Assembly (NCBI GenBank): GCA_963618495.1
Contig: CAVESF010000009.1
Coordinates: forward strand, 179-64,178
Length of the DNA: 64,000 nt
Direction: 5' to 3'
Source: Acutalibacteraceae bacterium
Lineage (GTDB): Bacteria > Bacillota > Clostridia > Oscillospirales > CAG-272
The notes under the pieces were generated by a model, which ran no database searches, was not told the DNA's origin, and saw nothing but the letters and a program-made list of their open reading frames with translations. A program made the translations under genes and the position numbers. This document shows positions 5,128 through 63,716 of this stretch, piece by piece. How positions within the stretch are numbered: the stretch's first letter is position 1; every line of letters begins with the position of its first letter.

Positions 5128-6279
5128 TCATCCGCCGATTTTTACTTCCTTTGCGATATCGATTATGCAGTCCACCTGCTCGTGGAGCGTCAGATATTCT
5201 TCGCCGAAATCAAGCTTTGTGTGACGCGCCAGAATCTCTGCTCCGTCAAGGTCGGCGGAACTTTTCAGCGTCAGCTCGGCGTAAGCCTCGCGCAGGCATT
5301 CCGTCTGCGTGCGCTGTGCCTCTCTCGTCTCGTAGCAGACGTACTCTTTTTCCGCCGTATAAAGCGGCAGAGGCACGCCGAAAAGCGTCACTCTCGTTTT
5401 TCTTTCTATTATATCATAAAACTCTGCCGAAATTCTATCATTTTTGAAAACTTTTATTGATTTTCCGAAAAAAATTATGCTTTTTTCGCCGAGAACGGTA
5501 TTACTGCGCAGTTTTTGCCTGTATCGGACGGGAATTTTTACATCATATTCGAGCGTAGTCCTGCCGTAGACTCTCCCGCGAGAGCGCACAAGCCTGTATC
5601 CGAGCGCCTGCGAATCGATGACGCCGCTGACAAGAAGCTCGCCGCGCTTCACCGTCTGCCCTGCCTTCACCACAGTCGCGCCGCCGCTCACATCGAGCAG
5701 TTCTATCTGCGCGTCGCACGCGGCGATGAGATTCGATGGCGGTGTGAGCGCTTCGATGCTGTCACGTCCCGTGCGTTCGTGTATGTCTATCGTGGCGACG
5801 GTGCCGCGCATATTTATCTTAAACCACGAGAAGCGTCCGTCGTCTTTCGTTATCTCCATGGCGATGCGTTCCTTATCGAGCGATGGGATATACGCGCCTA
5901 TGCGGAAACCATGCCGCTCAAGTGCCGCGAAAATTTCTTCCTCTTCCGTATTTTCCGCGCCGACGATGCGTATATCCCAGACAAAAAGCGTAGAGACAAA
6001 TATCAGCGCCGCCGCAATGATAAAGCCGAGCGCAAGTCCCGCACGCTTCCTGTAGCGGTACAAATCGGCAAGAAGTGAGCGGCGGTGTATCTCCTCGCAG
6101 AGTGGTTCAGCATCTTCGGGAAAGCGATACGGCGTATAAAAAGATATCATCCCGTCACCAGCCTTTTTAGTCGGCGTAAAGGAGATTTTTCTCTCCATGA
6201 GAAGTGAGAGGAGCACGGCGGAGTTTTTCTCACTCGCTTTTACGCGGCAGTAGCCGCGCATATAACGCAGAAATTTCAT
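5128..6279 (-). CDS. yqfD: Sporulation protein YqfD
   Basis: The MKFLRYMRGYCRVKA start at 6279 overlaps the yqfC stop. One central TM segment followed by the VWDIRIVGAE region is typical of YqfD. The 57 upstream codons in the track ORF are probably not translated. Confidence 0.8.
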   Translation of the reverse strand: MKFLRYMRGYCRVKASEKNSAVLLSLLMERKISFTPTKKAGDGMISFYTPYRFPEDAEPLCEEIHRRSLLADLYRYRKRAGLALGFIIAAALIFVSTLFVWDIRIVGAENTEEEEIFAALERHGFRIGAYIPSLDKERIAMEITKDDGRFSWFKINMRGTVATIDIHERTGRDSIEALTPPSNLIAACDAQIELLDVSGGATVVKAGQTVKRGELLVSGVIDSQALGYRLVRSRGRVYGRTTLEYDVKIPVRYRQKLRSNTVLGEKSIIFFGKSIKVFKNDRISAEFYDIIERKTRVTLFGVPLPLYTAEKEYVCYETREAQRTQTECLREAYAELTLKSSADLDGAEILARHTKLDFGEEYLTLHEQVDCIIDIAKEVKIGG

Positions 6280-6536
6280 CTTTTCGCTCCTTTCTCGAAT
6301 GTGACCGTGCGCAGGTCGCCAGAGATGAGCATTTTGCCCTCGCCTGCCCAGCAGAGAGAAAGTCTGCAGCCCGAGATAACGATGTCGTCCTCCCTCGTGC
6401 AGATGCGCGCGCATTCCCTCGTATAGTTCGCGACACCGACGCATCCGCATATCAGGAGCCGCGAGTTTTCCACCATTTCGATGTTGTATTTTCCCGTCGT
6501 CGGAATATCATGTAAAAAGAATGATATCTTTTTCAT
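6276..6536 (-). CDS. yqfC: Sporulation protein YqfC
   Basis: About 86 aa, directly upstream of and overlapping yqfD. The ATG at 6536 lies 8 nt after GGAGGAG. Confidence 0.8.
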   Translation of the reverse strand: MKKISFFLHDIPTTGKYNIEMVENSRLLICGCVGVANYTRECARICTREDDIVISGCRLSLCWAGEGKMLISGDLRTVTFEKGAKR

Positions 6537-6601
6537 AAAAGGCACTCCTCCGCAATAAATTTATATAGCAGTATATATTTTATTACGGGAGGTGTGCCGT
6601 C

Positions 6602-7528
6602 ATGACGAAAAAACGGATTTTCCTGCGGGGCGCGGCGATTCTTTTCTGTGTTTTTCTGCTTTTCTGCGCCGTGATATTTCCCGCCGAGACGGCGGAAAGC
6701 ATCACAGGCTCGCTTTCGCTTGCCGTGCGGCGCGTCGTTCCGTCGCTTTTCGTTTTTTCGGCGCTCGCCTCTTTCTTTGCGAGAATCGGACTTTTTACCC
6801 GCGCGGGCAGACTTGGAGGGTTCTTCGGGCTTTCGCCCGCGTGTACAGCCGTCGCGCTCTGCGGACTGCTTTGCGGCTTCCCCACAAGCGCCGTATGCGC
6901 CCATGCGCTATGGGAAAGCGGCGAGGCGGATGCCGCGGAAATGCGTTCCGTCCTCCCCTTTTGCAGTAATGCCGGCATGGCTTTTGTCGTCGGTTCCGTT
7001 GGCGAAGGCATGCTCGGCAGCAGGCGTGCGGGATATATGCTCTTTCTCCTGCAGACCGTCCTGTCAATTGTATTTATCCTGCTTTTTTGCAGAAGCAAAA
7101 TTTTCGTCGCCATGCTGCCCGCAAGAGGAAAAAAAGAGAGTCTTTCCCATGCGCTTGTCGCCTCCGTTTCGGCGGCGGGCGGTGCCATGCTCACGGTCTG
7201 CGCATTCATCGCGTTTTTCGGCGCGGCAGCGGATATGATATGTCTTGTTTTTCCCTCCGTTCCGCCTTTTTTGTGTGCCTTAATATGCTCTTTTTTTGAA
7301 ATAAGTCGCGGTTGTGCCGAATTTTCGGATGCGGCGGAGCTTTCGCCGCTTCTGCGATATATCGGCGTGGCATTTGCTCTCGGCTTCTCGGGTGTGTCGG
7401 TCGCCTGCCAGATATCCGAGCGCGCGGGCGAAATTTACCTGCCGATATTGCCATATCTTGTAAAAAAACTCGTTTTCGGACTCGCTGTGGCGGCAATCTG
7501 CGGCATTTTCGCGATTTTTGTGATATGA
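6602..7528 (+). CDS. Polytopic membrane protein, YlbJ/nucleoside-recognition-like (sporulation integral membrane protein family)
   Basis: 308 aa, multi-TM, N-terminal PSLFVFSAL motif as in YlbJ/SpmA-type proteins. GGGAGG RBS. Confidence 0.5.
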   Translation: MTKKRIFLRGAAILFCVFLLFCAVIFPAETAESITGSLSLAVRRVVPSLFVFSALASFFARIGLFTRAGRLGGFFGLSPACTAVALCGLLCGFPTSAVCAHALWESGEADAAEMRSVLPFCSNAGMAFVVGSVGEGMLGSRRAGYMLFLLQTVLSIVFILLFCRSKIFVAMLPARGKKESLSHALVASVSAAGGAMLTVCAFIAFFGAAADMICLVFPSVPPFLCALICSFFEISRGCAEFSDAAELSPLLRYIGVAFALGFSGVSVACQISERAGEIYLPILPYLVKKLVFGLAVAAICGIFAIFVI

Positions 7529-7602
7529 AATTTACATAAAACTATAGAAATATTGTTTTATATGTGTTATACTATAAAAAAATACTCTCCGAGGTGGTTT
7601 TC

Positions 7603-7809
7603 ATGCGCAAAAAGAACGATGATATGCCGCGTTGCTGTGCCTACTGCGAAAAGGCAACGCCGCTCGAAACGGGCGATATGCTCTGCCGCAAAAAGGGCGT
7701 TGTCGCCGATACATACTGCTGCCGCGGTTTTAAATTCGATATACTCAAGCACGAGCCGAAAAGAAAGCGTGAGCTTCCCGAATTTTCGCCCGTGTACATA
7801 GACGACTGA
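7603..7809 (+). CDS. Small Cys-rich hypothetical protein
   Basis: 68 aa from the ATG at 7603, preceded by a GAGGTGG RBS. Cysteine pattern CC-x2-C...C...CC. Sits directly upstream of mutS2. Confidence 0.4.
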   Translation: MRKKNDDMPRCCAYCEKATPLETGDMLCRKKGVVADTYCCRGFKFDILKHEPKRKRELPEFSPVYIDD

Positions 7810-13299: not shown

Positions 13300-13675
13300 C
13301 TCAACGCACTGACCAAAGTTTCGCACACCATAATTAAAGTTTTCGCTCACTTTTATTAAAGTTTCGGTCAAGCCTTTTCAAAGGCTTGACCGAGCCGCCG
13401 GTGTCGGCGGTCGCGCTCCGCAGAGCGCGAAAGCTCTATAACGGCGCTTTTCTTTTTTGTAGCTTTTTCTTTTGCGGCGGCGATGGCAAAAGAAAAAGCG
13501 GATGAAAGATTTGATTTCTTGTTTTGACTGTTGACGGGACTTTGGTTCTCGAGTAGGGCGGCGGCTTGCTGCCGCAGTGTAGAATCATAAAGAAACTTTT
13601 CCTTTTCTCGTACTTTTGTGTGACCAAAAGTACCAAAAGTCATATAAGAGGCGTTCCACCTCTTATATATCTCCC
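13300..13675 (+). repeat. Intergenic repeat locus R2 (iterated TTAAAGTTTCG motif, T module, long H hairpin, X double hairpin)
   Basis: Shares modules with loci R3-R7 on direct comparison. Confidence 0.85.
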
Positions 13676-13677
13676 CC

Positions 13678-13828
13678 CTGTCGCCTCGCGGCGACCAGTG
13701 CGAGCAAAGTGCCCCGACCGTCCCGCCATAGCATAGCCACAGCTACAGGTTCGAAACGCCCCCGCGCCGACTCGGATTCACTGCTGTGCCATGTCAGGCT
13801 ATAGCGAACCTCGCGGTTGATATTTTGG
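13678..13828 (+). repeat. Z module copy 1 (151 nt, candidate structured RNA or hairpin-ended mobile module)
   Basis: Roughly 88-90 percent identical by eye to the reverse complement of 51554-51704. Confidence 0.8.
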
Positions 13829-30702: not shown

Positions 30703-30855
30703 AAATCCTGCTCCCTTCCTTTTTATTTTCTTCTCTGATTTTTGCTGCTCACAAAAATTCCCCGCTGTCACCTGACAGCGGAAAATTTTATGCCATAGGA
30801 AAATTTTATGCCATAATAGACAAAATATCAGCCGAAAAATCTGCTAATAGTAATA

Positions 30856-30884
30856 TTGACATCGTAAAATAATAATGATAAAAT
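30856..30884 (+). promoter_or_regulatory. Promoter of the lipoprotein-MBOAT operon
   Basis: TTGACA, 17 nt spacer, TGA-TAAAAT. Confidence 0.6.
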
Positions 30885-30932
30885 TATATCATGAAAAAGT
30901 CTGCTGTGAGCAGATATATTTCGGAGGGAAAT

Positions 30933-32885
30933 ATGAAGAAAACAATACGAATATTTGCCTTTATACTGGCGGTTTCCATGTGCATGGGAATAGTCGCCTG
31001 CGGAAATAAGCCGGATGAGACGACAGGCTCTTCTTCCGCCACGGCTTCAACCTCGGAAAGCAGGGAAACCACAGGCGCAGCAAGCGGCACCGACAGCGCG
31101 GCAACAGCTGCAACAGCCACGACCGACGCAACAAGCACCGGAGGCACTGTGGAGCCTCCCGCACCCACACCGGTATATAACAAGCTCCTCGCCGAAAAGC
31201 ACGGCGAATATCTGACAGTCAAATACAATCCCGCATACTGCGATCTTTCCGTTTCCACAAAAGAGGGAATAGGCGACTCGTACAAAGCGACAGTCACCGT
31301 CAAAATGAAAGACGGATACAAATTCAAAGGCTTCTCCTTTGACAGCGGCATTGCCAACGGCAAAGAAATCGCTTCCATGAAAACCGAATACACATTTGAT
31401 GTCGAAGATGAATGCACTCTTTTCGTCAACTGCGCGATGACATATGTCTATCATCTGAACGGCGGCACTCATGTCAGCGGCAGGGACGCCGTTGAATACG
31501 ATGCCGATGTAACCTACTATAAGAACCCAAATTCACTCCCTGAGCGCGGATATTTCAGGCGCGACGGATATGTTCTCGTCGAATACAACACCAAAGCGGA
31601 CGGCACGGGCGATGGCACAAGCCTCGGTTCAAGACCGTATGTCGGCGACAGAGCGAAAATCGACCTCTACTGCATCTGGGCAAAGGAAGCTCCCGCCTCC
31701 GATTTCGAATACGAGAAATCCGGCAGCGAAATCAAAATAACAGGCTATAAGGGAAGCGAAGAGGATACCCTTGCCGTTCCCGCAAAAATAGACGGACTCG
31801 CCGTCACATCCATTGGCAAGCGTGCGCTCGCCGGCACAAAGGCAGAGACAATCGTTCTCCCCGCAAGCGTAACGGAGCTCTGCGAAAAGGCTTTTGCCGA
31901 TTCCGAAATGTCCGCCCTCGTGATAACCGACGCGATAATAAAATTCACGGGTGAAGCATCGGGCTGGGGAATGAGCGCCGCAAATACGGTGATTGACGGT
32001 TGCGGAAATCTCGCAAATCTGCGTATCAATGCCGTTCTCTACCCGCTCTATGTGACATATATCGAATCCAATATGAAATATGACTATATGCTTTGGGCAA
32101 AGGACCGCAAAAAAATAGTCTATGTGGCAGGCTCGAGCGGTCAGTTCGGCTTTGTCGCGGAGGATATGGAAAAGGCGCTCGACGATGAATATGTAGTAGT
32201 CAACTACGGCACAAACGCCAATATCAGCGGTGCTTTCTGGATGGAGTATCTTTCCAAACTTATGGGAGAGGACGATATCCTCCTCTGGGCGCCCGAGGAC
32301 GGGCAGTATCTCTTCGGTAACAACCGCCTCAATAACAGACTCTGGCGTTCCGTCGAATGCAACTATGATATTTTCAGATATGTGGATATCAGAAATTACA
32401 CAAATGTTTTCGGCTCTTTTGAATCCCAGCAAAGCGAAAAAGCAAAGAACAGCACCGTTCGCGAATACGACCGCTTCAACGATGCTATAAACAATAACGG
32501 CGACCTTTTCAATAACAGAAGCGCAGGCGCGGTAAAGGGCGGCTTTACTTTCAATCAGTTCCCGAGCAAGGAATGCATCGCATTTATGAATACGCAGTTT
32601 GACAAAATGGCTGAAAACGGCGTGAAGGTTTATATCTCGTTTGCTCCCATGTCAAAGAGCGTGCTCTACGATATAGCCAAAAAGACGCAGGCAGACCTTG
32701 ACGAATACTCCGGCAATGTCGCAAAGAACTATCACGGTACAGTCATTTCCAATATAGCCGACCATGCCATAGACAGCAGATATTTTGCCGATTCCGAATG
32801 GCACATGACGGATGCCGGCGCACACCTGAGAACGGAAATACTCATCCGCGAGCTGAAGGCTCAGCTTGAAAAAGAGGCAAAATAA
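30933..32885 (+). CDS. Surface lipoprotein: Ser/Thr-rich linker, Listeria-Bacteroides-type repeat, BspA-like LRR, C-terminal SGNH/DltD-like domain
   Basis: Lipobox IVACG. YNTKADGTGDG repeat signature. LRR_5-like segment (AVTSIGKRALAGT...LPASVTEL). C-terminal VAGSSGQFG and DSEWHMTDAG resemble SGNH/DltD blocks I and V. The ATG at 30933 follows GGAGGG. Confidence 0.6.
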   Translation: MKKTIRIFAFILAVSMCMGIVACGNKPDETTGSSSATASTSESRETTGAASGTDSAATAATATTDATSTGGTVEPPAPTPVYNKLLAEKHGEYLTVKYNPAYCDLSVSTKEGIGDSYKATVTVKMKDGYKFKGFSFDSGIANGKEIASMKTEYTFDVEDECTLFVNCAMTYVYHLNGGTHVSGRDAVEYDADVTYYKNPNSLPERGYFRRDGYVLVEYNTKADGTGDGTSLGSRPYVGDRAKIDLYCIWAKEAPASDFEYEKSGSEIKITGYKGSEEDTLAVPAKIDGLAVTSIGKRALAGTKAETIVLPASVTELCEKAFADSEMSALVITDAIIKFTGEASGWGMSAANTVIDGCGNLANLRINAVLYPLYVTYIESNMKYDYMLWAKDRKKIVYVAGSSGQFGFVAEDMEKALDDEYVVVNYGTNANISGAFWMEYLSKLMGEDDILLWAPEDGQYLFGNNRLNNRLWRSVECNYDIFRYVDIRNYTNVFGSFESQQSEKAKNSTVREYDRFNDAINNNGDLFNNRSAGAVKGGFTFNQFPSKECIAFMNTQFDKMAENGVKVYISFAPMSKSVLYDIAKKTQADLDEYSGNVAKNYHGTVISNIADHAIDSRYFADSEWHMTDAGAHLRTEILIRELKAQLEKEAK

Positions 32886-32897
32886 GAGGTAAAATAT

Positions 32898-33152
32898 ATG
32901 TTTCCCGATAAACTCACTCTTTTTTCTCATCCGGCGATACTTATTATGCTCGCCGCAATGACAGCGATGTTTATACTCGAGTTTGTTTTCAGGAAAAAGT
33001 TTTTCATTATAGTAAACGCCGCTTTTGCGGCGTTTGCCGTAATACTGGGACTTTATCTTGAAATCTCTCTTTCCGAGGTGCTGATACTCGTGCTTATCGC
33101 GCTTATCATGCGCCTTATTCTGACACTGCGGAGGGAAAAGCATGACATTTAA
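32898..33152 (+). CDS. 84-aa hydrophobic mini membrane protein, translationally coupled to the MBOAT gene
   Basis: GAGG RBS. Three hydrophobic stretches. Its stop overlaps the MBOAT start by 11 nt. Confidence 0.5.
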   Translation: MFPDKLTLFSHPAILIMLAAMTAMFILEFVFRKKFFIIVNAAFAAFAVILGLYLEISLSEVLILVLIALIMRLILTLRREKHDI

Positions 33153-34596
33153 TTCGTTTGAATTTCTTATATTTTTCCCGATATTCCTGCTCTGCTATTT
33201 TCTGCTCCCGAAAAAGCTGAAAATGCCCGCTATGCTCGCCCTGAGCTATTGGTTCTATGCCGCATGGAATTTCCGCCTGCTCGCGCTGATAATTTTTACT
33301 ACGGCGGTATCGTATTTCTGCGCGCTGGCGATAGAAAAGACAGAGAAAAAAGGGCTTAAAAAGCTCTGCATAACGCTGACGCTCATCGTCTGCCTCGGCA
33401 CGCTTTTCTTCTTTAAATATTATAATTTCATGGCAGGCACCGTTTCGGGCGTTATGAGCGCGATAAACGGCAAGGCATACGATTTCTCGCTGAATCTGAT
33501 ACTCCCCGTGGGAATCTCGTTCTATACATTCCAGACGCTCTCGTATGCGATAGATGTTTATCGCGGCGATATAAAGGCGGAGCGGAATTTCTTCTGGTAT
33601 GCGCTTTTCGTCAGCTTCTTTCCGCAACTTGTGGCAGGTCCTATCGAGCGACCCGACAATCTGCTGCCTCAGCTCAAGGAATTTCATCGCCTGACTGCGG
33701 AAAATGCCTTTCTCGGCATGCAGAAAATGGCTGTCGGCTTCTTCAAGAAGATAGCCGTCGCCGATATTCTCGCGGGATATGTCAACTCGGTTTATAACGA
33801 TATCGGAAACGCCACGGCAACAGGCATAATCATAGCGACGGTGCTTTTTGCCGTTCAGATATACTGCGATTTCTCGGGATATACCGATATCGCCATAGGA
33901 TGCTCGCGGATAATGGGCATACGCCTCATGCAGAATTTCGACCGTCCGTATTCGGCGCGCTCGATAAAGGAATTCTGGGACAGATGGCATATCAGCCTTT
34001 CAACATGGTTCCGAGATTATCTCTACATACCGCTCGGAGGCAACAGATGCTCCCGCGCAAGGTATTATCTGAATCTTTTCGTCGTATTTCTCGTGAGCGG
34101 CTTGTGGCACGGCGCAAACTGGACTTTTGTAATCTGGGGTGCTCTCCACGGATTTTTCCGCATATTCGGCTCGGCTACGAAAAAATACCGCATGGCGCTC
34201 TATACGAAAATAGGCATAAAGACAGATTCGCGCGTTTTTGCCGCCATGCAGAGATTTACCACATTCTTTTTCGTCTGTCTTGCGTGGATTTTCTTCCGCG
34301 CAAACAGCATTTCCGATGTCGGTGCGGCATTCGGCAAGCTCTTCTCTTCCCCGGCATATTCCTTTGCCGATACGGTTTCGGGCATGGGACTGACCGCGGC
34401 AGGCGCGCTCTATTGCGCTCTTGCAATAACGGCGCTCATTCTCATGGACAGAGTAATGAGCATACCGAAGCTTGAGAGCGACGGCTGTACGGCAAAAAAA
34501 ACGACGGTGCTTTATACCGTCTGGGCGGTTATCGCCGCATGGGTGCTGATACTTTCCGTCGGCGGCGCGAGCACATTCATTTATTTCCAGTTCTGA
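33142..34596 (+). CDS. MBOAT-family membrane O-acyltransferase (AlgI/DltB/PatA-like)
   Basis: 484 aa, polytopic, with FWDRWHISLSTWFRDYLYIPLGGNR and SGLWHGANW...GALHG signature histidines. Confidence 0.9.
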   Translation: MTFNSFEFLIFFPIFLLCYFLLPKKLKMPAMLALSYWFYAAWNFRLLALIIFTTAVSYFCALAIEKTEKKGLKKLCITLTLIVCLGTLFFFKYYNFMAGTVSGVMSAINGKAYDFSLNLILPVGISFYTFQTLSYAIDVYRGDIKAERNFFWYALFVSFFPQLVAGPIERPDNLLPQLKEFHRLTAENAFLGMQKMAVGFFKKIAVADILAGYVNSVYNDIGNATATGIIIATVLFAVQIYCDFSGYTDIAIGCSRIMGIRLMQNFDRPYSARSIKEFWDRWHISLSTWFRDYLYIPLGGNRCSRARYYLNLFVVFLVSGLWHGANWTFVIWGALHGFFRIFGSATKKYRMALYTKIGIKTDSRVFAAMQRFTTFFFVCLAWIFFRANSISDVGAAFGKLFSSPAYSFADTVSGMGLTAAGALYCALAITALILMDRVMSIPKLESDGCTAKKTTVLYTVWAVIAAWVLILSVGGASTFIYFQF

Positions 34597-34609
34597 GGAG
34601 GTGCGATAT

Positions 34610-36040
34610 ATGAAAAAATCAGTTGTAAGATTCATCTGCATATTGCTGCTTCTTCTGCTTCCGCTCTCGTGCGCCGCTTCCGTCGGCTTTCTCATAAAAC
34701 CGCAGTTTACAAAGCTTTTCACAGCGGAGTTATATGACAAGGTAGCGCGGCTGGACAGCATAAAGGAGCCGAAAATTGTCATCGTCAGCGGCAGCAGCGC
34801 CGCTTTCGGGCTTGACAGCAAGCTGCTTGAAGATACGCTCGGCATGCCCGTAGTCAATTTCGGACTCTATGCCTCCATCGGCACGAAAGCAATGATGGAC
34901 CTCTCGCGCAAATCAATAAGAGAGGGCGATATCATAGTTCTCGCGCCTGAGATGGACCGTCAGCTCCTCTCGCTTTATTTCGGCGCGGATTCGCTCTGGC
35001 AGGCGTGCGACGGGCATTTCGGTCTGCTCACGCGGCTCTCGCGTGACGACGCTCCCGCCATGCTCGGCGCATACTGGAAATTTGCCGCGTCGAAATTCCG
35101 CTACAGCAGAGGCACGCCGCTCGAACCTGCCGGAGTCTATTCAAAAAGCGCTTTCAACGAATACGGCGATATCGATTATCACGACAGAAAATACAACATC
35201 ATGGCGCAGGGCTATGACCCCGCGCACATCATAGATTTCTCGCCGGATATCGTTTCGCAGGATTTCATCGATTATGTAAACGAATATGTAGAATATGCAA
35301 AAAATCGCGGCGCGACGGTGTATTTCGGCTTTGCTCCGATGAATATGAGCGCGCTCCGCGAGGGTACGGAGATAGAGGATATCGAGGCTTTCGAAGCTTT
35401 TCTCGAGTCAAATCTCAAAGCTCCTCTGCTCGGCAGTGCCAACGGATATATCTATCGCGCGGGCTACTTCTACGACAGCAATTTCCACATGAACGAAACG
35501 GGCGTTATCCTGCATACGCGCAGGCTTGCGCTCGACCTTGCCGAGGTGCTCGGCGGCATCGAGGTCAATATAGAACGCCCGAAAGAGCCTGTGAAACCTG
35601 ATGAACCCGACGAACCCGCAGAATATGACGAGAACGAAAAGTATTTCGTTTTTGAAGAAAAAGCAGGCAGTATCTATATCGCAGGTGTAAGCGATGAAGG
35701 CAAGAAGCTCACCGCCCTGCGCACACCGACCGCCTATAACGGCAAGCGCGGTATCATCATCGGTACCGGTGCTTTTGCGGGATGCGGAAAGCTCACCGAG
35801 CTTTTTGTCACGGACAATATCTCGTATATCTCGGACGGTGCCTTTGTCGGCGCGGGAAAACTCATGAAGATTCATATTCTTGCCGAAAATCCCGATTCCA
35901 CAACGGTAAACGGCATGGGAAGCAGTCTCACAGAGGGTCTCCCCTCGGGCGCACAGTTCTATGTGCCGAGCGCATCGCTCGGAAGCTATGTCGGAAACTA
36001 TTTCTGGAGTACCTTTGCAGACAGAATAGTAGGAGAATAA
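34610..36040 (+). CDS. Membrane-anchored SGNH/DltD-like protein with C-terminal BspA-like LRR; paralog of 30933-32885 with swapped domain order
   Basis: N-terminal signal/anchor, IVSGSSAAFG and DSNFHMNETG motifs, a PKEPVKPDEPDEP linker and a C-terminal LRR_5-like segment. The ATG at 34610 lies 9 nt after GGAGG. Confidence 0.6.
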   Translation: MKKSVVRFICILLLLLLPLSCAASVGFLIKPQFTKLFTAELYDKVARLDSIKEPKIVIVSGSSAAFGLDSKLLEDTLGMPVVNFGLYASIGTKAMMDLSRKSIREGDIIVLAPEMDRQLLSLYFGADSLWQACDGHFGLLTRLSRDDAPAMLGAYWKFAASKFRYSRGTPLEPAGVYSKSAFNEYGDIDYHDRKYNIMAQGYDPAHIIDFSPDIVSQDFIDYVNEYVEYAKNRGATVYFGFAPMNMSALREGTEIEDIEAFEAFLESNLKAPLLGSANGYIYRAGYFYDSNFHMNETGVILHTRRLALDLAEVLGGIEVNIERPKEPVKPDEPDEPAEYDENEKYFVFEEKAGSIYIAGVSDEGKKLTALRTPTAYNGKRGIIIGTGAFAGCGKLTELFVTDNISYISDGAFVGAGKLMKIHILAENPDSTTVNGMGSSLTEGLPSGAQFYVPSASLGSYVGNYFWSTFADRIVGE

Positions 36041-36237
36041 AATAGGCGTTATAGTGCGAGTCGGCAACCGATGGCTGCCGGCTCGCTTCGGTCTGTCGAA
36101 AAACCCTAAATTCAGAAATTAGTTTTGGCGGATGCGTAGAATCGGCAACAAAAGAAAGCCTTCCCTCAAAGGCGCGCAAAAACCTTAATTCAGTATTGAA
36201 AATTTCATCATATGTGCCCAAAACCGACATAAAAAAA

Positions 36238-36273
36238 GCGAAAGCCACGGTCTCCCGTGCCTTTCGCTTTTTT
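36238..36273 (+). terminator. Intrinsic terminator after the second SGNH/LRR gene
   Basis: GCGAAAGCCACGG TCTC CCGTGCCTTTCGC plus TTTTTT. Confidence 0.8.
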
Positions 36274-36390
36274 GGGGGGATATATTAAGCCGAAGCAACG
36301 CCCGGCAAAATATCGGATTTCTTGTCATATATCATACTTTTTTGTCGTTTTGTCTTGTGACAGGACAGAAAAGTTACAGTATTAGTATAT

Positions 36391-36425
36391 CATATAATTT
36401 GTCTTATGTCAAGACAAATTATATG
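36391..36425. promoter_or_regulatory. Perfect 15 bp-arm palindrome (operator candidate) upstream of the XRE gene
   Basis: CATATAATTTGTCTT ATGTC AAGACAAATTATATG, ending 16 nt before the XRE start codon. Confidence 0.6.
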
Positions 36426-36441
36426 ATTTTCGGAGAAAACC

Positions 36442-36681
36442 ATGGCAAGAATTATCGACGGAAACAAAATGAATCTTATCGGCAAAAATGTAAAAAAGCT
36501 TAGAAAACAGAGGAAAATGAGTCAGCGCGAGCTCTCGGAAAAGCTCGAACTTCTCGGCGTTTATGTCTGTCGCGGCTCGGTCTCCCGCATAGAAGAAAGA
36601 GTGCGCACAGTCACCGATATCGAGCTTTATGCCATAAGCTGTGTATTCGGCGTGCCGGTTTCTGCCCTTTTTGAAGAATAA
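36442..36681 (+). CDS. XRE-family helix-turn-helix transcriptional regulator
   Basis: 79 aa with IGKNVKKLRKQRKMSQRELSEKL, a typical HTH_3. A perfect palindrome lies immediately upstream. Confidence 0.85.
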   Translation: MARIIDGNKMNLIGKNVKKLRKQRKMSQRELSEKLELLGVYVCRGSVSRIEERVRTVTDIELYAISCVFGVPVSALFEE

Positions 36682-36715
36682 AACAAGATTCCTCGGCATA
36701 AATTCAAATAAATTC

Positions 36716-36744
36716 TTGACAAATATCCCGTTTATTTGTATAAT
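36716..36744 (+). promoter_or_regulatory. Consensus promoter of the ligase/carrier-protein operon
   Basis: TTGACA, 17 nt spacer, TATAAT. Confidence 0.7.
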
Positions 36745-36792
36745 AGATATTTGTAAAGTAGGAAAAATCTTTTCTGAAAGGATGTATGTGTT

Positions 36793-38496
36793 TTGAAAAA
36801 AAGAGGCGCGGATCATATTGTATACAGCTTTGACAATCTATATGACGGCGTTAGGAAACAGGCAGAAAGATACGGCGAAAAAGCAAGATACGTTTATAAG
36901 GTAAATAAAGAAGAAAAAACTTTCACTTTCAATGACATGAAGCGTCATGTCGACTATATAGCCGCCGCTCTTGAAAAGCTCGGTCTTGCGGGTAAATTTG
37001 CGGGCGTCACAGGCGATACTCATCCCGACTATATAGCCTCATATATTGCCGTGGCAAGCTGCGGCGGCGTTATCGTTCCGCTTGATAAAGACATCCTGAA
37101 CGAGCAGTTTGTCGGATTCTGCGATATGTGCGATATAGAGATAATTTTCTATACTCACTCGCTCCATTCCAAAATGCTTGCCGTAAAGGATATGCTCCCG
37201 AAAGCAAAATATTTCGTAGCATTCGACTGCACGGAAGAGGAACTTCCCGAGCGCTTCATGCGTTTTGAGGATTTCTATGAAACAGGCAGGGCCGCATATG
37301 AAGAGGAAAATATCCGTCCTGCGGAAAATTACGAGCCGGATATGGACAAAATGTGTGCCATACTTTTCACCTCCGGCACTACGGGAACAAGCAAGGGCGT
37401 TATGCTCAGCCAGCGCAACCTCGTGACAAGCGCGCTTGATTCCTGCCGCGTAATGGCGACAAACGATGAAGATTTCTTCGTTTCCGTTCTTCCCATTCAT
37501 CATGCGTATGAGTTTACCTGCGAGCAGCTTGCACTGCCGAACTGCGGCGCATCCACCTACATAAACGATTCCATCAAAAATACCATGCGCAACTTTGCGA
37601 AAGTAAAGCCGCGTTCGCTCGTGCTTGTTCCGCTCTATATAGAGACGATTCACAAGCGCATCTGGGCAGAGATAGAAAAGAAAGGCAAGACCAAGCAGGT
37701 CAAAGCCGCGATGAAGATAAGCAATGCGCTCCGCCACGTCGGCATAGACATCCGCCGCAAGCTTTTTGCCGAGATTCTGAATGCTCTCGGCGGCGAGGTG
37801 AACTACATTGTCTGCGGCGGCGCTCCGCTCCGTCCCGAACTTATAGATGAATTTGATGCTTTCGGCATAATGATTTGCGAGGGCTACGGCATAACGGAAT
37901 GCTCCCCGCTTGTCGCCGCAAATCCGATGCACAAGCGCAAGCATCATTCCGCGGGCGTCACGGTAGAGCATATGGAAGCGCGTATAGCCAAGGCTGACCT
38001 CAATGATGAGACGGGCGAGATAGAAGTCAAGGGTCCTGCGGTGATGCTTGGCTACTACAAGAATCCCGAGGCTACAGCAGCTGTATTTACCGATGACGGC
38101 TGGTTCAGAACAGGAGATATCGGTTATATAGACGATGAAAATTATATTTTCATCACAGGCAGAAAGAAAAATATCATTCTTCTCTCAAACGGCAAGAATG
38201 TATTCCCCGAGGAACTTGAAGAATATCTCGGCGAATGCGAGCTTGTTGCGGAAAATGTCGTAATCGGCAGAAAGAATGAAGAAACAGGCGAGGTTGTTAT
38301 CACAGCGCTCGTATATCCCGATGCCGAAAAGATAAAAGGCATGAGTGCCGATGAAATTTATGCCAAGATAAAGGAAGAAATAAACGAAATAAACAAGAAA
38401 CTTCCCGCATTCAAGCATATCAGCGGTCTTGAAATAAGAGACACGGAATTTGAAAAAACCACATCAAGAAAAATCATGCGTTATAAGCTGAAGTAA
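36793..38496 (+). CDS. AMP-dependent synthetase/ligase (FadD-like adenylate-forming enzyme)
   Basis: 567 aa with FTSGTTGTSKGV, GYGITE and TGDIGYIDDENYIFITGRKKNIILLSNGKNVFPEELE motifs. TTG start per the ORF track. Confidence 0.85.
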   Translation: MKKRGADHIVYSFDNLYDGVRKQAERYGEKARYVYKVNKEEKTFTFNDMKRHVDYIAAALEKLGLAGKFAGVTGDTHPDYIASYIAVASCGGVIVPLDKDILNEQFVGFCDMCDIEIIFYTHSLHSKMLAVKDMLPKAKYFVAFDCTEEELPERFMRFEDFYETGRAAYEEENIRPAENYEPDMDKMCAILFTSGTTGTSKGVMLSQRNLVTSALDSCRVMATNDEDFFVSVLPIHHAYEFTCEQLALPNCGASTYINDSIKNTMRNFAKVKPRSLVLVPLYIETIHKRIWAEIEKKGKTKQVKAAMKISNALRHVGIDIRRKLFAEILNALGGEVNYIVCGGAPLRPELIDEFDAFGIMICEGYGITECSPLVAANPMHKRKHHSAGVTVEHMEARIAKADLNDETGEIEVKGPAVMLGYYKNPEATAAVFTDDGWFRTGDIGYIDDENYIFITGRKKNIILLSNGKNVFPEELEEYLGECELVAENVVIGRKNEETGEVVITALVYPDAEKIKGMSADEIYAKIKEEINEINKKLPAFKHISGLEIRDTEFEKTTSRKIMRYKLK

Positions 38497-38565
38497 TCCT
38501 GCTTATATTATATCAAAGGCTATTTTAAAAGATACAAGTGCTTTATTTGAAAAAGGAGACATATT

Positions 38566-38790
38566 ATGTTTGAAGAAATCAAGACACTGCTCGTAGATGA
38601 ACTCAGCATACCGGCAGAAGAAATCAAGCCGGAATCCGAGCTTATCGGCGATCTCGGCATCAACTCTCTCGAGCTTGCTGACCTCGTCATGCTCTGCGAA
38701 GACAAGTTTGATGTTGAAATAGACGAAGAGGAGCTTCGCAAGTTTATTACGGTAGGCGATGTTGCCGATTATTTTGCAAATCTGAAATAA
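38566..38790 (+). CDS. Acyl/peptidyl carrier protein (PP-binding)
   Basis: 74 aa, acidic. DLGINSLELADLV contains the phosphopantetheine-attachment serine context. AAGGAG RBS. Confidence 0.85.
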   Translation: MFEEIKTLLVDELSIPAEEIKPESELIGDLGINSLELADLVMLCEDKFDVEIDEEELRKFITVGDVADYFANLK

Positions 38791-38898
38791 ACGAGATGCT
38801 AAAAAAGTGCAGACCGAAAAAGTGAAAGGGTGTGTAACTTTTTTGGTAAAAGAGGTTTGTTAAAGCTAAAACTGTTCAGTAATATCGATTTTAAGGAA

Positions 38899-38934
38899 GG
38901 CAGGAAATCCGAGAGAGGTTTTCCTGCCTTTTAT
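38899..38934 (+). terminator. Intrinsic terminator inside repeat copy 1
   Basis: GGCAGGAAA / TTTCCTGCC 9 bp stem followed by TTTTATC. Confidence 0.75.
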
Positions 38935-39143
38935 CATATTCACTTTTTCTCTCGCCGAAATCCTTTTCTGCCGTACAGATGTACGGCGACGAAGCGGATA
39001 TTCAACGATTCTGCGCATTTTTATCTATCTCGTTACACGAGATGCTAAAAAAGTGCAGACCGAAAAAGTGAAAGGTGTGTAACTTTTTTGGTAAAAGAGG
39101 TTTGTTAAAGCTAAAACTGTTCAGTAATATCGATTTTAAGGAA

Positions 39144-39179
39144 GGCAGGAAATCCGAGAGAGGTTTTCCTGCCTTTTAT
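39144..39179 (+). terminator. Identical intrinsic terminator inside repeat copy 2; a mutated version lies in copy 3 at 39389-39424
   Basis: Same hairpin as copy 1. Copy 3 carries C-to-A in the 3' arm. Confidence 0.7.
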
Positions 39180-39544
39180 CATATTCACTTTTTCTCTCGC
39201 CGAAATCCTTTTCTGCCGTACAGATGTACGGCGACGAAGCGGATATTCAACGATTCTGCGCATTTTTATCTATCTCGTTACACGAGATGCTAAAAAAGTG
39301 CAGACCGAAAAAGTGAAAGGTGTGTAACTTTTTTGGTAAAAGAGGTTTGTTAAAGCTAAAACTGTTCAGTAATATCGATTTTAAGGAAGGCAGGAAATCC
39401 GAGAGGGGTTTTCCTGCATTTTATCATATTCACTTTTTCTCTCGTCGAAATCCTTTTCTGCCGTACATTCGCTGTTCCTTTTTCTTGCCGCATCTCATCA
39501 AGCCAAGAGTGCTTTTTTCTTTTCCACAAATATTCAAAAAACCG

Positions 39545-39573
39545 TTGACAAACGCACATTCTTTTGATATAAT
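39545..39573 (+). promoter_or_regulatory. Consensus sigma-A promoter for tRNA-Thr
   Basis: TTGACA, 17 nt spacer, TATAAT; the -10 ends 12 nt before the tRNA 5' end. Confidence 0.8.
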
Positions 39574-39585
39574 AATAAAGCATTC

Positions 39586-39661
39586 GCTGATATGGCTCAG
39601 CAGGTAGAGCACATCCTTGGTAAGGATGAGGTCACCGGTTCGAATCCGGTTATCAGCTCCA
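39586..39661 (+). tRNA. tRNA-Thr (anticodon GGT), CCA encoded
   Basis: Hand-folded cloverleaf: acceptor GCTGATA/TATCAGC, D stem GCTC/GAGC, anticodon stem CATCC/GGATG with loop TTGGTAA, T stem ACCGG/CCGGT with loop TTCGAAT. Confidence 0.9.
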
Positions 39662-44910: not shown

Positions 44911-45470
44911 CCGTCAGCGCACATATCACATTCACGCCCGCCATGCATTTTCAGCGGGCGTGCAGACAATGCGTGCACGAATCTGCTCGGCTATCTCGTG
45001 TGTTATGTTCGCACGCGTGGTATGGCTGAAGCTGCGGAGAATGGCAAAACCGCCGATTTTTGCTTTGTCTGTTTGTCGCACGCACTCGCCACGCATGGCT
45101 TGCGTGACTAACTCGTGCACGCGGGAAGAGTTTGCAAAGAGAGGGGAAAGCTCTCTTTGATGACTTTTGGTACTTTTCGTCACGGAAAAGTACGAGAGAA
45201 GAAAAGTTACTTTATGTTTCTGCGCGGGAGACCACTGGTCTTCCCTGCCATGCAAAATCCAAGTATAGTCAACAGCAAAAATAAAAGACTGAATCCCTCT
45301 CCGCTTTTTCTTTTGACATCGCTGCCGCAAAAGAAAAAGCTATCAAAAAGAAAACGCCGAAATCAGAATTTTGCGCTCTGCGGAGCGCGACAAAGGCTCC
45401 GCGCCTTTGATGACGCCGCCTTTTTCAAAAGGCGTGCGAAAACTTTAATTGCGGGCGTGCGAAAGCAAAA
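44911..45470 (-). repeat. Intergenic repeat locus R4 (Y, X, H and T modules)
   Basis: 44911-45215 matches the reverse complement of 51196-51506. 45290-45465 matches the H+T units of R2, R3 and R7. Confidence 0.85.
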
Positions 45471-51184: not shown

Positions 51185-51195
51185 GTTTTCTGCGG

Positions 51196-51553
51196 AGAAT
51201 CATAAAGAAACTCTTCTTTTATTGTACTTTTGTATGACCAAAAGTACCAAAAGTCATATAAGAGAGCGTTCCTCTCTCTTATATATCTCTTCCCGCGTGC
51301 ACGAGTTAGTCGCACGAGCCGTGCGTGGCGAGTGCGTGCGACAAGGGGCAAAGCAAAAGTAGGCAGTTTAGCTACTCTCCACAGCTTCAGCCATACCACG
51401 CGTGCGAACATAGCACACGAGGAAGCCGAGCAGATTCGTGCACGCATTGCCTGCACGCCCGCATAATAGGGTTGGCGGGCGTGAATCCACCACCTACGCT
51501 GACGGGACTATCAAAATAAACCCTATCTCGCTATGTTCGCACACAGACACGCA
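51196..51553 (+). repeat. Intergenic repeat locus R5, left part (X double hairpin plus about 245 nt Y module)
   Basis: X matches 13590-13675 in the same orientation. Y matches 44911-45170 in inverted orientation. Confidence 0.85.
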
Positions 51554-51704
51554 CCAAAATCTCAACCGCGAGGTTCGCCATAGCCCGACATGGCACAGCA
51601 GTGAATCCGAGTCGGCGCTTAAGCGTTTCGAACCTGTAGCCGCGGTTATGCCGTAGTTGGACGGTCGGGGCACTTTGTTCGCACTGGTCGCCGCGAGGCG
51701 ACAG
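51554..51704 (-). repeat. Z module copy 2 (inverted relative to copy 1)
   Basis: See 13678-13828. Confidence 0.8.
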
Positions 51705-53966: not shown

Positions 53967-53995
53967 TTGACAAAACCGTATAGTGTGTGTATAAT
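53967..53995 (+). promoter_or_regulatory. Consensus sigma-A promoter of the rplJ-rplL operon
   Basis: TTGACA, 17 nt spacer, TATAAT. Confidence 0.8.
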
Positions 53996-53996
53996 A

Positions 53997-54151
53997 TATA
54001 GGCAATCCGAAGACAGCAGGTTTTTGTAAAAGCTGAGCTATCCTGCCGAGGAGAGATTTATAAAGCGATTTATTGTCTTTCCGTATGCTTCATTGCGGAA
54101 AGATTTTTTATTTTCAAGCTTGGCTTTATTATTACGAAAGGTGGTGTAATT
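53997..54151 (+). promoter_or_regulatory. Ribosomal protein L10 leader (autoregulatory attenuator)
   Basis: About 155 nt of 5' UTR between the promoter and rplJ, containing a terminator hairpin (54076-54114: TCTTTCCG/CGGAAAGA plus T-run). Position and layout match the Firmicute L10 leader. Confidence 0.55.
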
Positions 54152-63642: not shown

Positions 63643-63687
63643 ACAAACGAATAAGATGGGCTGGTCTCCGGACCCGGGTCCACCTGC

Positions 63688-63716
63688 GGCGGGGATGTTC
63701 CCCGCCATTTTTATTT
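63688..63716 (+). terminator. Terminator-like hairpin inside the DUF3800 5' leader
   Basis: GGCGGGG ATGTT CCCCGCC followed by ATTTTTATTT, ending a few nt before the AAAGGAG RBS. Confidence 0.6.

Follow-up and report, generated by a model that had tools for sequence, protein, structure and literature searches.

A predicted MBOAT-SGNH-type surface-acylation cassette and its neighbouring ligase/acyl carrier protein pair are probably separate units in an uncultured clostridial genome

Within about 8 kb of contig CAVESF010000009.1 of an Acutalibacteraceae bacterium, six roles resembling those of the Dlt system lie adjacent and on the same strand, raising the question of whether they serve one acylation pathway. 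An earlier note, made from the same 64,000-nucleotide (nt) stretch (the window, whose positions are used throughout), had answered that they do: a ligase would load an acyl group other than D-alanine onto an acyl carrier protein (ACP), and the group would pass to an MBOAT protein, a DltX-like protein of 84 amino acids (aa) and two SGNH-like finishing enzymes. Our analysis indicates instead that the region probably comprises two functionally independent units. The first is a four-gene cassette (unit 1, 30856-36273) for MBOAT-SGNH-type O-acylation, most likely O-acetylation, of a surface polymer, and the second is a separate block with an XRE regulator, the ligase and the ACP (unit 2, 36389-38790). 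A carrier-protein-dependent, Dlt-like reading of the region is very unlikely. The inventory of the earlier note, comprising seven open reading frames (ORFs) and their regulatory signals, was borne out in position by ORF, Pfam and promoter/repeat checks, with the small corrections given below. The features are as follows.

30856-30884, plus strand: sigma-70-type promoter of the four-gene cassette (TTGACA-17-TAAAAT with a TG extension, 11/12 consensus matches)
30933-32885, plus strand: gene 1, a lipoprotein with a Ser/Thr linker, a beta-repeat and BspA-type LRR region, and a C-terminal SGNH/DltD-like domain
32898-33152, plus strand: gene 2, an 84-aa hydrophobic membrane microprotein, translationally coupled to the MBOAT (AAGAGG ribosome-binding site)
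33142-34596, plus strand: gene 3, a PatA/AlgI-type MBOAT with a fused C-terminal shuttle motif, FIYFQF, containing Tyr481 (PF03062, E = 3.8e-25)
34610-36040, plus strand: gene 4, with an N-terminal membrane helix, an SGNH/DltD-like domain (GSS...DSNFH) and a C-terminal BspA-type LRR
36232-36273, no strand assigned: hairpin terminator ending the cassette transcript (19-nt arms, 95% complementary, flanked by A and T runs)
36389-36427, no strand assigned: 17+5+17 inverted repeat upstream of the XRE gene with perfect 17-nt arms, a probable operator
36442-36681, plus strand: XRE-family HTH regulator (HTH_3, E = 6.3e-9)
36716-36744: promoter ahead of the ligase (12/12 consensus matches)
36793-38496, plus strand: FadD/long-chain-type adenylate-forming ligase (AMP-binding, E = 4.5e-60, plus C-terminal domains)
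38566-38790, plus strand: 74-aa ACP of the fatty-acid-synthesis type (PP-binding, E = 5.2e-13)

The relationship between the two units was examined at 80 species-representative genome loci carrying the cassette in other genomes, all of uncultured Clostridia (46 with at least 5 kb of downstream and 49 with at least 5 kb of upstream flank). Neither the ligase nor the ACP was present within the available flanks at 79 of the 80 loci. The sole exception is the closest named genome, Candidatus Apopatosoma intestinale (L019, 91% identical), in which the ligase/ACP block lies upstream of the cassette on the opposite strand. Looking from the side of the ligase, an ACP gene immediately follows it at 23 of 80 retrieved ligase loci, down to about 40% ligase identity, and 22 of these 23 lack the cassette; the remaining one (L097, 97% identical) carries both units in divergent orientation. 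At a further close relative (L096, 98% identical), no cassette was found in the 2.1 kb upstream of the XRE gene. One further contig (ERZ27247139:k141_905109) carries both units, each among unrelated genes and separated from the other by about 20 kb, and in GCA_965356275 the pair sits between peptidase genes. The earlier note had proposed the pair as acyl supplier and suggested a survey of relatives for its co-occurrence with the MBOAT; the survey places the pair at unrelated loci, which is essentially the outcome that the earlier note had named as refuting its proposal. Because the ligase/ACP pair sits elsewhere in almost all relatives, a carrier-protein-fed Dlt-like system is unsupported, and synteny brings the single-pathway reading close to refutation, even though the units adjoin in L019 and L097, the closest relatives, as well.

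DNA comparison with these relatives resolved the cassette block (30798-36088, which includes the cassette promoter) and the XRE-ligase-ACP block (36176-38825) into separate homology units, with a breakpoint between 36088 and 36176. The hairpin at 36232-36273 travels with the XRE-ligase-ACP block in L019. This second block, running from the terminator through XRE and ligase to ACP, is downstream of and co-oriented with the cassette in the window, but upstream and divergent in both L019 and L097. An interspersed repeat family, with copies 85-91% identical to one another, was observed at 13581-13828, 44930-45225 and 51192-51704 of the window, at L019:2645-3735 and at L011:134-492. Copies of these repeats lie at the junctions of the XRE-ligase-ACP block in close relatives, which suggests that they mediate local rearrangements. 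In L011 the block is followed by SHMT-holA-like genes, and the same genes directly follow the cassette in the more distant L004. Most likely, unit 2 stands beside unit 1 only through local rearrangement in this lineage, and the adjoining of a ligase/ACP pair and an MBOAT in a single genome is no evidence of carrier-protein dependence.

The cassette itself is tightly conserved. Gene order and gene sizes are maintained in nearly all of the 80 loci, and every neighbourhood inspected showed the same order of a large LRR protein, an ORF of 84-86 aa, an MBOAT of 484-485 aa and a protein of about 480 aa. Its surroundings vary, often with rplI-dnaB-tilS-hpt on the opposite strand, and only housekeeping genes recur among them. 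In the window the four genes form one operon, preceded by the promoter that the earlier note had placed at 30856-30884 and closed by the strong terminator, followed by a T run, that it had placed after gene 4.

We then consider what the MBOAT indicates about the acyl donor. The PF03062 match confirmed gene 3 as an MBOAT. Residues 118-386, including the RWH and WHG motifs, align to DltB structures (E = 1.5e-27), and an extension of about 98 aa lies beyond this DltB-like core at the C-terminus. H283, H323, H336 and the segment F479-F484 are invariant among 76 unique orthologs (52-94% identical); His283 and His323 align to the WH motifs of DltB, and FIYFQF makes up the last six residues in 83/83 loci. 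FxYxxF is known as an acyl-shuttle motif, which in Dlt resides on the microprotein DltX with the carrier protein DltC as donor (Anderson et al. 2025, PMC12148441). In PatA, AlgI and other bacterial MBOATs, by contrast, two extra helices of the MBOAT itself carry the motif, whose Tyr PatA auto-acetylates from acetyl-CoA, and such fused-motif systems work without a carrier protein and without a microprotein (PMC12148441). Because its C-terminal FIYFQF is invariant and falls on the fused side of this classification, the window MBOAT would be of the fused-motif, acyl-CoA-fed type. For a single Dlt-like pathway it could be argued that the only NCBIfam model matched by the MBOAT is the DltB equivalog TIGR04091, but the match reaches 161 bits against a cut-off of 375, and the MBOAT carries its own FIYFQF as acyl-CoA-fed enzymes do (PMC12148441).

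The earlier note had also offered the 84-aa product of gene 2 as a possible DltX analog. The ORF was found as described, with its stop overlapping the MBOAT start at 33142 by 11 nt, and a sliding-window hydropathy scan placed hydrophobic segments at about residues 13-25 and 41-72. An equivalent ORF, mostly of 70-95 aa, abuts the MBOAT start in 79/84 loci. The sequence diverges fast, with some columns conserved among 72 unique orthologs: an acidic residue stands at the position of Glu28 in 68% and at that of Glu60 in 85%, a basic one at that of Lys33 in 88%, and Arg72 is retained in 57%. Neither Pfam nor NCBIfam yielded a match to the 84-aa protein. No FxYxxF was present in the last 12 residues of any of the 72 unique orthologs, and the microprotein is therefore not a DltX-type shuttle; the DltX analogy was rejected, the motif being on the MBOAT instead. 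The microprotein is an additional conserved subunit that lacks a counterpart in the described fused-motif systems, with a role perhaps in complex assembly or stabilisation.

The claim that the locus holds every Dlt role fared no better for the carrier-loading components of unit 2. The NCBIfam model that the ligase matches best, PRK06187 (long-chain fatty-acid-CoA ligase), scores 273 bits and so misses its cut-off, and the top models comprise fatty-acid, malonyl and o-succinylbenzoate CoA ligases; DltA was found neither among the 25 NCBIfam families shown nor among 47 PDB matches at E <= 1e-20. The ACP scores 72.1 with the 'acyl carrier protein' model NF002148 and so passes the cut-off of 71; in the PDB it best matches ACPs of fatty-acid synthesis, and no DltC model appeared among its 16 NCBIfam matches. 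The ligase is thus not DltA-like and the ACP is of the fatty-acid-synthesis type. The identities given to the parts of unit 2, namely XRE regulator, consensus promoter, FadD-like ligase and 74-aa carrier protein, all held in the Pfam and promoter scans. What had been called a perfect 35-nt palindrome keeps its perfect arms of 17 nt, but the 5-nt spacer breaks the palindrome, making it a 17+5+17 inverted repeat, which overlaps promoter-like hexamers of both strands. The terminator, the XRE gene with this operator-like repeat and the separate perfect promoter all stand between the cassette and the ligase/ACP pair, and the XRE gene, ligase, ACP and inverted repeat are not part of the acylation cassette. 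XRE is found beside the ligase only in near-identical relatives (L011, L012, L019, L096 and L097) and is absent at more distant orthologs. No third gene recurs beside the ligase-ACP pair, save for sporulation-like genes in one subclade. In L110, L121, L122, L126 and L127, the pair lies directly downstream of three minus-strand genes that by eye resemble spoVAC, spoVAD and spoVAE. From the families they resemble, the likeliest activity of the pair is acyl-ACP-synthetase-like, with fatty acids being attached to a dedicated ACP to serve lipid metabolism, and in this lineage it would most likely be under XRE control.

A more radical reading would have the ligase and ACP of this lineage feed the MBOAT a longer or unusual acyl group. 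We regard such a supply as hardly credible. If true, no MBOAT system other than Dlt would have been carrier-protein-dependent before this one, in which the MBOAT moreover has a shuttle motif of its own; literature searches found no carrier-dependent MBOAT other than that of Dlt.

The proteins flanking the microprotein and MBOAT share a domain. The C-terminal domain of gene 1 and the N-terminal domain of gene 4 match each other by BLASTP (E = 3e-16, 24% identity over 264 aa), bearing out the view that gene 4 is a paralog with swapped domain order. Both paralogs carry export signals, a lipoprotein signal in gene 1 and an N-terminal membrane helix in gene 4. Sequence models were silent on this domain: Pfam at E <= 10 gave no match to the isolated gene-1 catalytic domain and one chance-level, unrelated match (E = 0.062) to that of gene 4, with none of the GDSL, ALGX, DHHW and DltD families matched by either. 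NCBIfam at E <= 0.01 gave no meaningful match to the full-length proteins, and a profile of the catalytic-domain family returned chance PurE matches and no related chain from all PDB sequences. AlphaFold2 modelled gene 4 with a pLDDT of 90.8 at full length and 89.5 for the domain alone. In Foldseek searches with the full-length model, LRR matches dominated and SGNH/DltD matches were weak. With the domain-only model, the top PDB match was DltD of E. faecalis (6o93; probability 0.97, E = 1.2e-3, TM 0.40), followed by the SGNH esterases 1deo, 2hsj and 2o14 and then by C. jejuni PatB. These domain-model matches, among them rhamnogalacturonan acetylesterase, 2hsj, YxiM and PatB, have probabilities of 0.75-0.99, and every natural-protein match with a probability of about 0.75 or more is an SGNH-fold enzyme.

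Conservation within the family agrees with this fold. G64-S65-S66, N86, G88, D292 and H296 (gene 4 numbering) are invariant in 38 homologs. In the gene-4 model, GSS lies where the first strand ends and a helix starts, and the last helix follows closely on the Asp and His, so that the invariant GSS, N/G and D...H sit where SGNH blocks I, II/III and V are expected. The catalytic order, with Ser first and Asp/His last, is the canonical one found in DltD and PatB. Of the earlier note's SGNH/DltD-like assignment, a match to a known acyltransferase or esterase family in Pfam or PDB sequences was not obtained, whereas the remote SGNH fold found by Foldseek and the invariant Ser, Asp and His stood. 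The shared flanking domain is predicted to be a remotely SGNH/DltD-like transferase, and the notion of an MBOAT plus SGNH/DltD-like extracytoplasmic acyl-transfer module with two paralogous LRR-bearing transferases is supported for genes 1-4.

Judging from profile searches, the shared domain represents a large unannotated family. An exhaustive profile search gave 5304 cluster representatives at E <= 1e-3, and a word-indexed search gave about 900 gene-4 homologs, all from uncultured Clostridia and named 'hypothetical' or 'LRR protein'. The domain was also seen in other architectures: alone (about 320 aa), in two copies (about 1000 aa) and fused to an N-terminal DUF4234 membrane domain, with P0244, P0249, P0262, P0280 and P0313 as examples among relatives of the gene-4 domain (34610-35575).

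Gene 1 and gene 4 required small corrections at their starts. The gene 1 ORF spans 30891-32885 (664 aa), and its real start is probably the ATG at 30933, downstream of a GGAGGG ribosome-binding site; translation from there gives MKKTIRIF...GIVAC followed by G, with a lipobox read by eye, and then a Ser/Thr-rich linker. The gene 4 ORF, 34601-36040, opens at a GTG (34601), and the ATG at 34610, downstream of a GGAGG site, is its likely start. In gene 1, GSSGQFG occupies residues 413-419 and DSEWH residues 634-638 (numbering of the 664-aa ORF). LRR_5 matched weakly and below the Pfam cut-off in both gene 1 (E = 1.9e-3) and gene 4 (E = 2.9e-4), and a gene-4 family profile matched BspA-type LRR structures with E = 1e-19, in agreement with Foldseek. 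The lipoprotein signal, linker, LRR (weakly) and both motifs ascribed to gene 1 were thus recovered, but its Listeria-Bacteroides repeat was not: Flg_new was undetected at E <= 10 in gene 1 and was seen weakly only in longer relatives. A tblastn match to the gene-1 C-terminal domain lies upstream of the MBOAT in most of the 80 loci. The number of such partners varies, with two tandem gene-1-type LRR/SGNH-like copies upstream of the MBOAT at L039, L043, L052, L053, L057, L058 and L093, and no gene-1 homolog shown at L029, L064, L067, L071, L075 and L084, among others.

By analogy with PatA/PatB and DltB/X/D, the cassette could work as follows. The MBOAT would take an acyl group from a cytoplasmic acyl-CoA, probably acetyl-CoA, and the invariant His323 would catalyse its transfer to Tyr481 of the MBOAT's own FIYFQF on the outer side. 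The acyl-Tyr would be handed to the invariant Ser of the DltD-like SGNH domain of the gene-4 protein, the gene-1 protein or both, and these proteins would pass the group to a cell-surface polymer. The LRR/beta-repeat modules would position the gene-1 and gene-4 proteins on the wall or the substrate, and the two paralogs may act in sequence, as AlgJ and AlgX do.

Several points weigh against this reading of the region. At TM 0.3-0.45 and E about 1e-3, the domain resembles DltD/SGNH enzymes remotely in fold; it is recognised by no sequence model, and its Asp-His spacing is DxxxH rather than the usual DxxH. In gene 4 this spacing is one residue longer than in L. plantarum DltD, whose triad is Ser74, Asp373 and His376 (PMC13653941). 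Fused-motif MBOAT systems have been reported without a microprotein, leaving the 84-aa partner unexplained. No polysaccharide or teichoic-acid genes recur across the loci surveyed, and the neighbours hence give no clue to the polymer. Finally, both units do occur in the same genomes, and the putative function of the ligase/ACP pair is read from family resemblance.

As to the polymer, an unlikely but arguable alternative is that the cassette is a peptidoglycan O-acetylation system, the functional equivalent of PatA/PatB for these Clostridia, with LRR modules that bind the wall. Its MBOAT is PatA-like with a fused shuttle motif, C. jejuni PatB is among the fold matches of the partner domain, which has the canonical S...H order as in PatB, and the cassette lies among housekeeping genes (rplI-dnaB) and not in an exopolysaccharide locus. 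However, with a probability of 0.75 PatB is a weak match, placed behind DltD, and a pair of paralogous transferases with a microprotein is unlike PatAB. BspA-type LRRs are not known to bind peptidoglycan, which also counts against this alternative. A second alternative takes genes 1 and 4 as surface adhesins with LRRs, in which the shared domain either lacks catalytic activity or acts as a hydrolytic esterase, the MBOAT linkage then reflecting lipid/protein acylation or another function. We find this quite improbable: although no acyltransferase or esterase sequence family matches the domain, its fold likeness is remote and the annotation of its homologs goes no further than 'hypothetical' or 'LRR protein', the invariant GSS, N/G and D...H stand at the expected SGNH blocks, the gene order with a shuttle-motif MBOAT is strict in nearly all loci, and the domain also occurs without any LRR in relatives of about 320 aa. 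The single Dlt-like pathway, for all the adjacency of its six roles in the window and the likeness of its transferase domain to DltD, is scarcely tenable given unlinked relatives, differing orientation where the units are linked, repeats that mark rearrangement, intervening regulatory signals, a microprotein devoid of FxYxxF, and a ligase/ACP pair of fatty-acid character.

Taken together, these results leave O-acylation of a surface polymer by unit 1, with unit 2 standing apart, as the preferred reading. By analogy, the cassette is probably an uncharacterised variant of the acyl-CoA-fed MBOAT-SGNH polymer O-acylation systems, and its three new features are a transferase domain family not known to databases, duplicated LRR-fused partners and a conserved microprotein. 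We lean, with somewhat less assurance than for the separation of the units, toward regarding it as a previously unrecognised MBOAT-SGNH branch, widespread in gut Clostridia, with a new family of DltD-like transferases, paired LRR-fused paralogs and a new obligatory membrane microprotein. No account of the four-gene cassette turned up in literature searches, in line with the earlier note's view that the architecture is undescribed. Lysozyme resistance, S-layer anchoring and the chemistry of the biofilm matrix are among the surface properties that MBOAT-SGNH systems determine, and to our knowledge only a handful of these systems have been characterised (Dlt, PatAB, AlgIJFX, WssFGHI and PatA1B1). 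The cassette is common in abundant, uncultured Clostridia of the gut and rumen and would mark an unannotated surface-modification system there, with a transferase domain invisible to current domain databases and a microprotein added to a class reported to have none. How widely the acyl-Tyr shuttle mechanism applies could also be tested with this cassette.

Some further observations were made around the two units. At L008, where gene 4 is 82% identical, a 519-aa DUF4886 protein is encoded in the opposite sense at 6179-7738, two genes beyond the downstream end of the cassette; this family is counted among the SGNH hydrolases (PMC9487903). Beyond unit 2, three tandem 245-bp units occupy 38826-39560, between the ACP stop and a tRNA-Thr(GGT) gene at 39586-39661. 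Two copies are identical, and the third is identical over its first 150 nt or so and unrelated beyond (70% overall). A hairpin resembling a terminator recurs in every copy (38897-38930 is one). Within the part of the third copy that diverges, a promoter that matches the consensus perfectly (39545-39573) closely precedes the tRNA. These repeats are shared by L011. Rfam at a permissive threshold found only the tRNA in this repeat region. Two Rfam matches above the gathering score, unrelated to the cassette, were found elsewhere in the window.

63657-63703: DUF3800-XI RNA (53.8 bits)
53989-54118: ribosomal protein L10 leader (65 bits)

Each unit can be compared with known systems. The ligase/ACP pair resembles AasS-type acyl-ACP synthetases and the ACS/ACP pairs of sphingolipid synthesis in having a FadD-like enzyme directly upstream of a small ACP as a conserved pair (for literature context, PMC12086093 and PMC9386255). 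It differs from them in having no conserved third pathway gene and in the XRE gene added only in this lineage.

The cassette shares with Dlt, which D-alanylates teichoic acids, an MBOAT core that aligns to DltB, a transferase domain whose best fold match is DltD, and a small membrane protein whose gene immediately precedes that of the MBOAT. Like gene 4, DltD has a membrane helix at its N-terminus. By contrast, the shuttle motif is on the MBOAT of the cassette and not on a DltX, the DltB model scores far below its cut-off, and neither DltA nor DltC is present, since the ligase and ACP close by are of fatty-acid type and unlinked in relatives.

A further comparison is with AlgI/AlgJ/AlgX/AlgF (alginate O-acetylation), and it also covers WssH/WssI (cellulose) and PatA1/PatB1 (secondary cell wall polysaccharide). 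Like the cassette, these systems combine an MBOAT with two related SGNH-like proteins, one membrane-anchored and one with a binding module, and a further small accessory protein is present (PMC9487903). The two non-redundant paralogs of the cassette recall AlgJ and AlgX. However, AlgJ, AlgX and PatB1 have a permuted catalytic order (PMC9487903), and the circularly permuted H-S-G-N order of AlgJ/AlgX/DHHW proteins contrasts with the Ser-first, Asp/His-last order of the cassette domain. The cassette also gives no ALGX or DHHW match in Pfam, has LRRs in place of a carbohydrate-binding module, and is not embedded in a polymer-synthesis operon.

The peptidoglycan O-acetyltransferase PatA/PatB of Neisseria and Campylobacter differs from the cassette in having one partner instead of two LRR-fused paralogs, and the cassette adds a conserved 84-aa membrane protein in a Gram-positive host, with a partner domain that matches no PatB/GDSL sequence model. 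The two nevertheless agree in a separate extracytoplasmic SGNH-type partner with the canonical Ser...Asp/His order, in an MBOAT with an invariant His and a C-terminal FxYxxF fused on extra helices (PMC12148441) and, for the cassette by analogy, in needing no carrier protein (PMC12148441).

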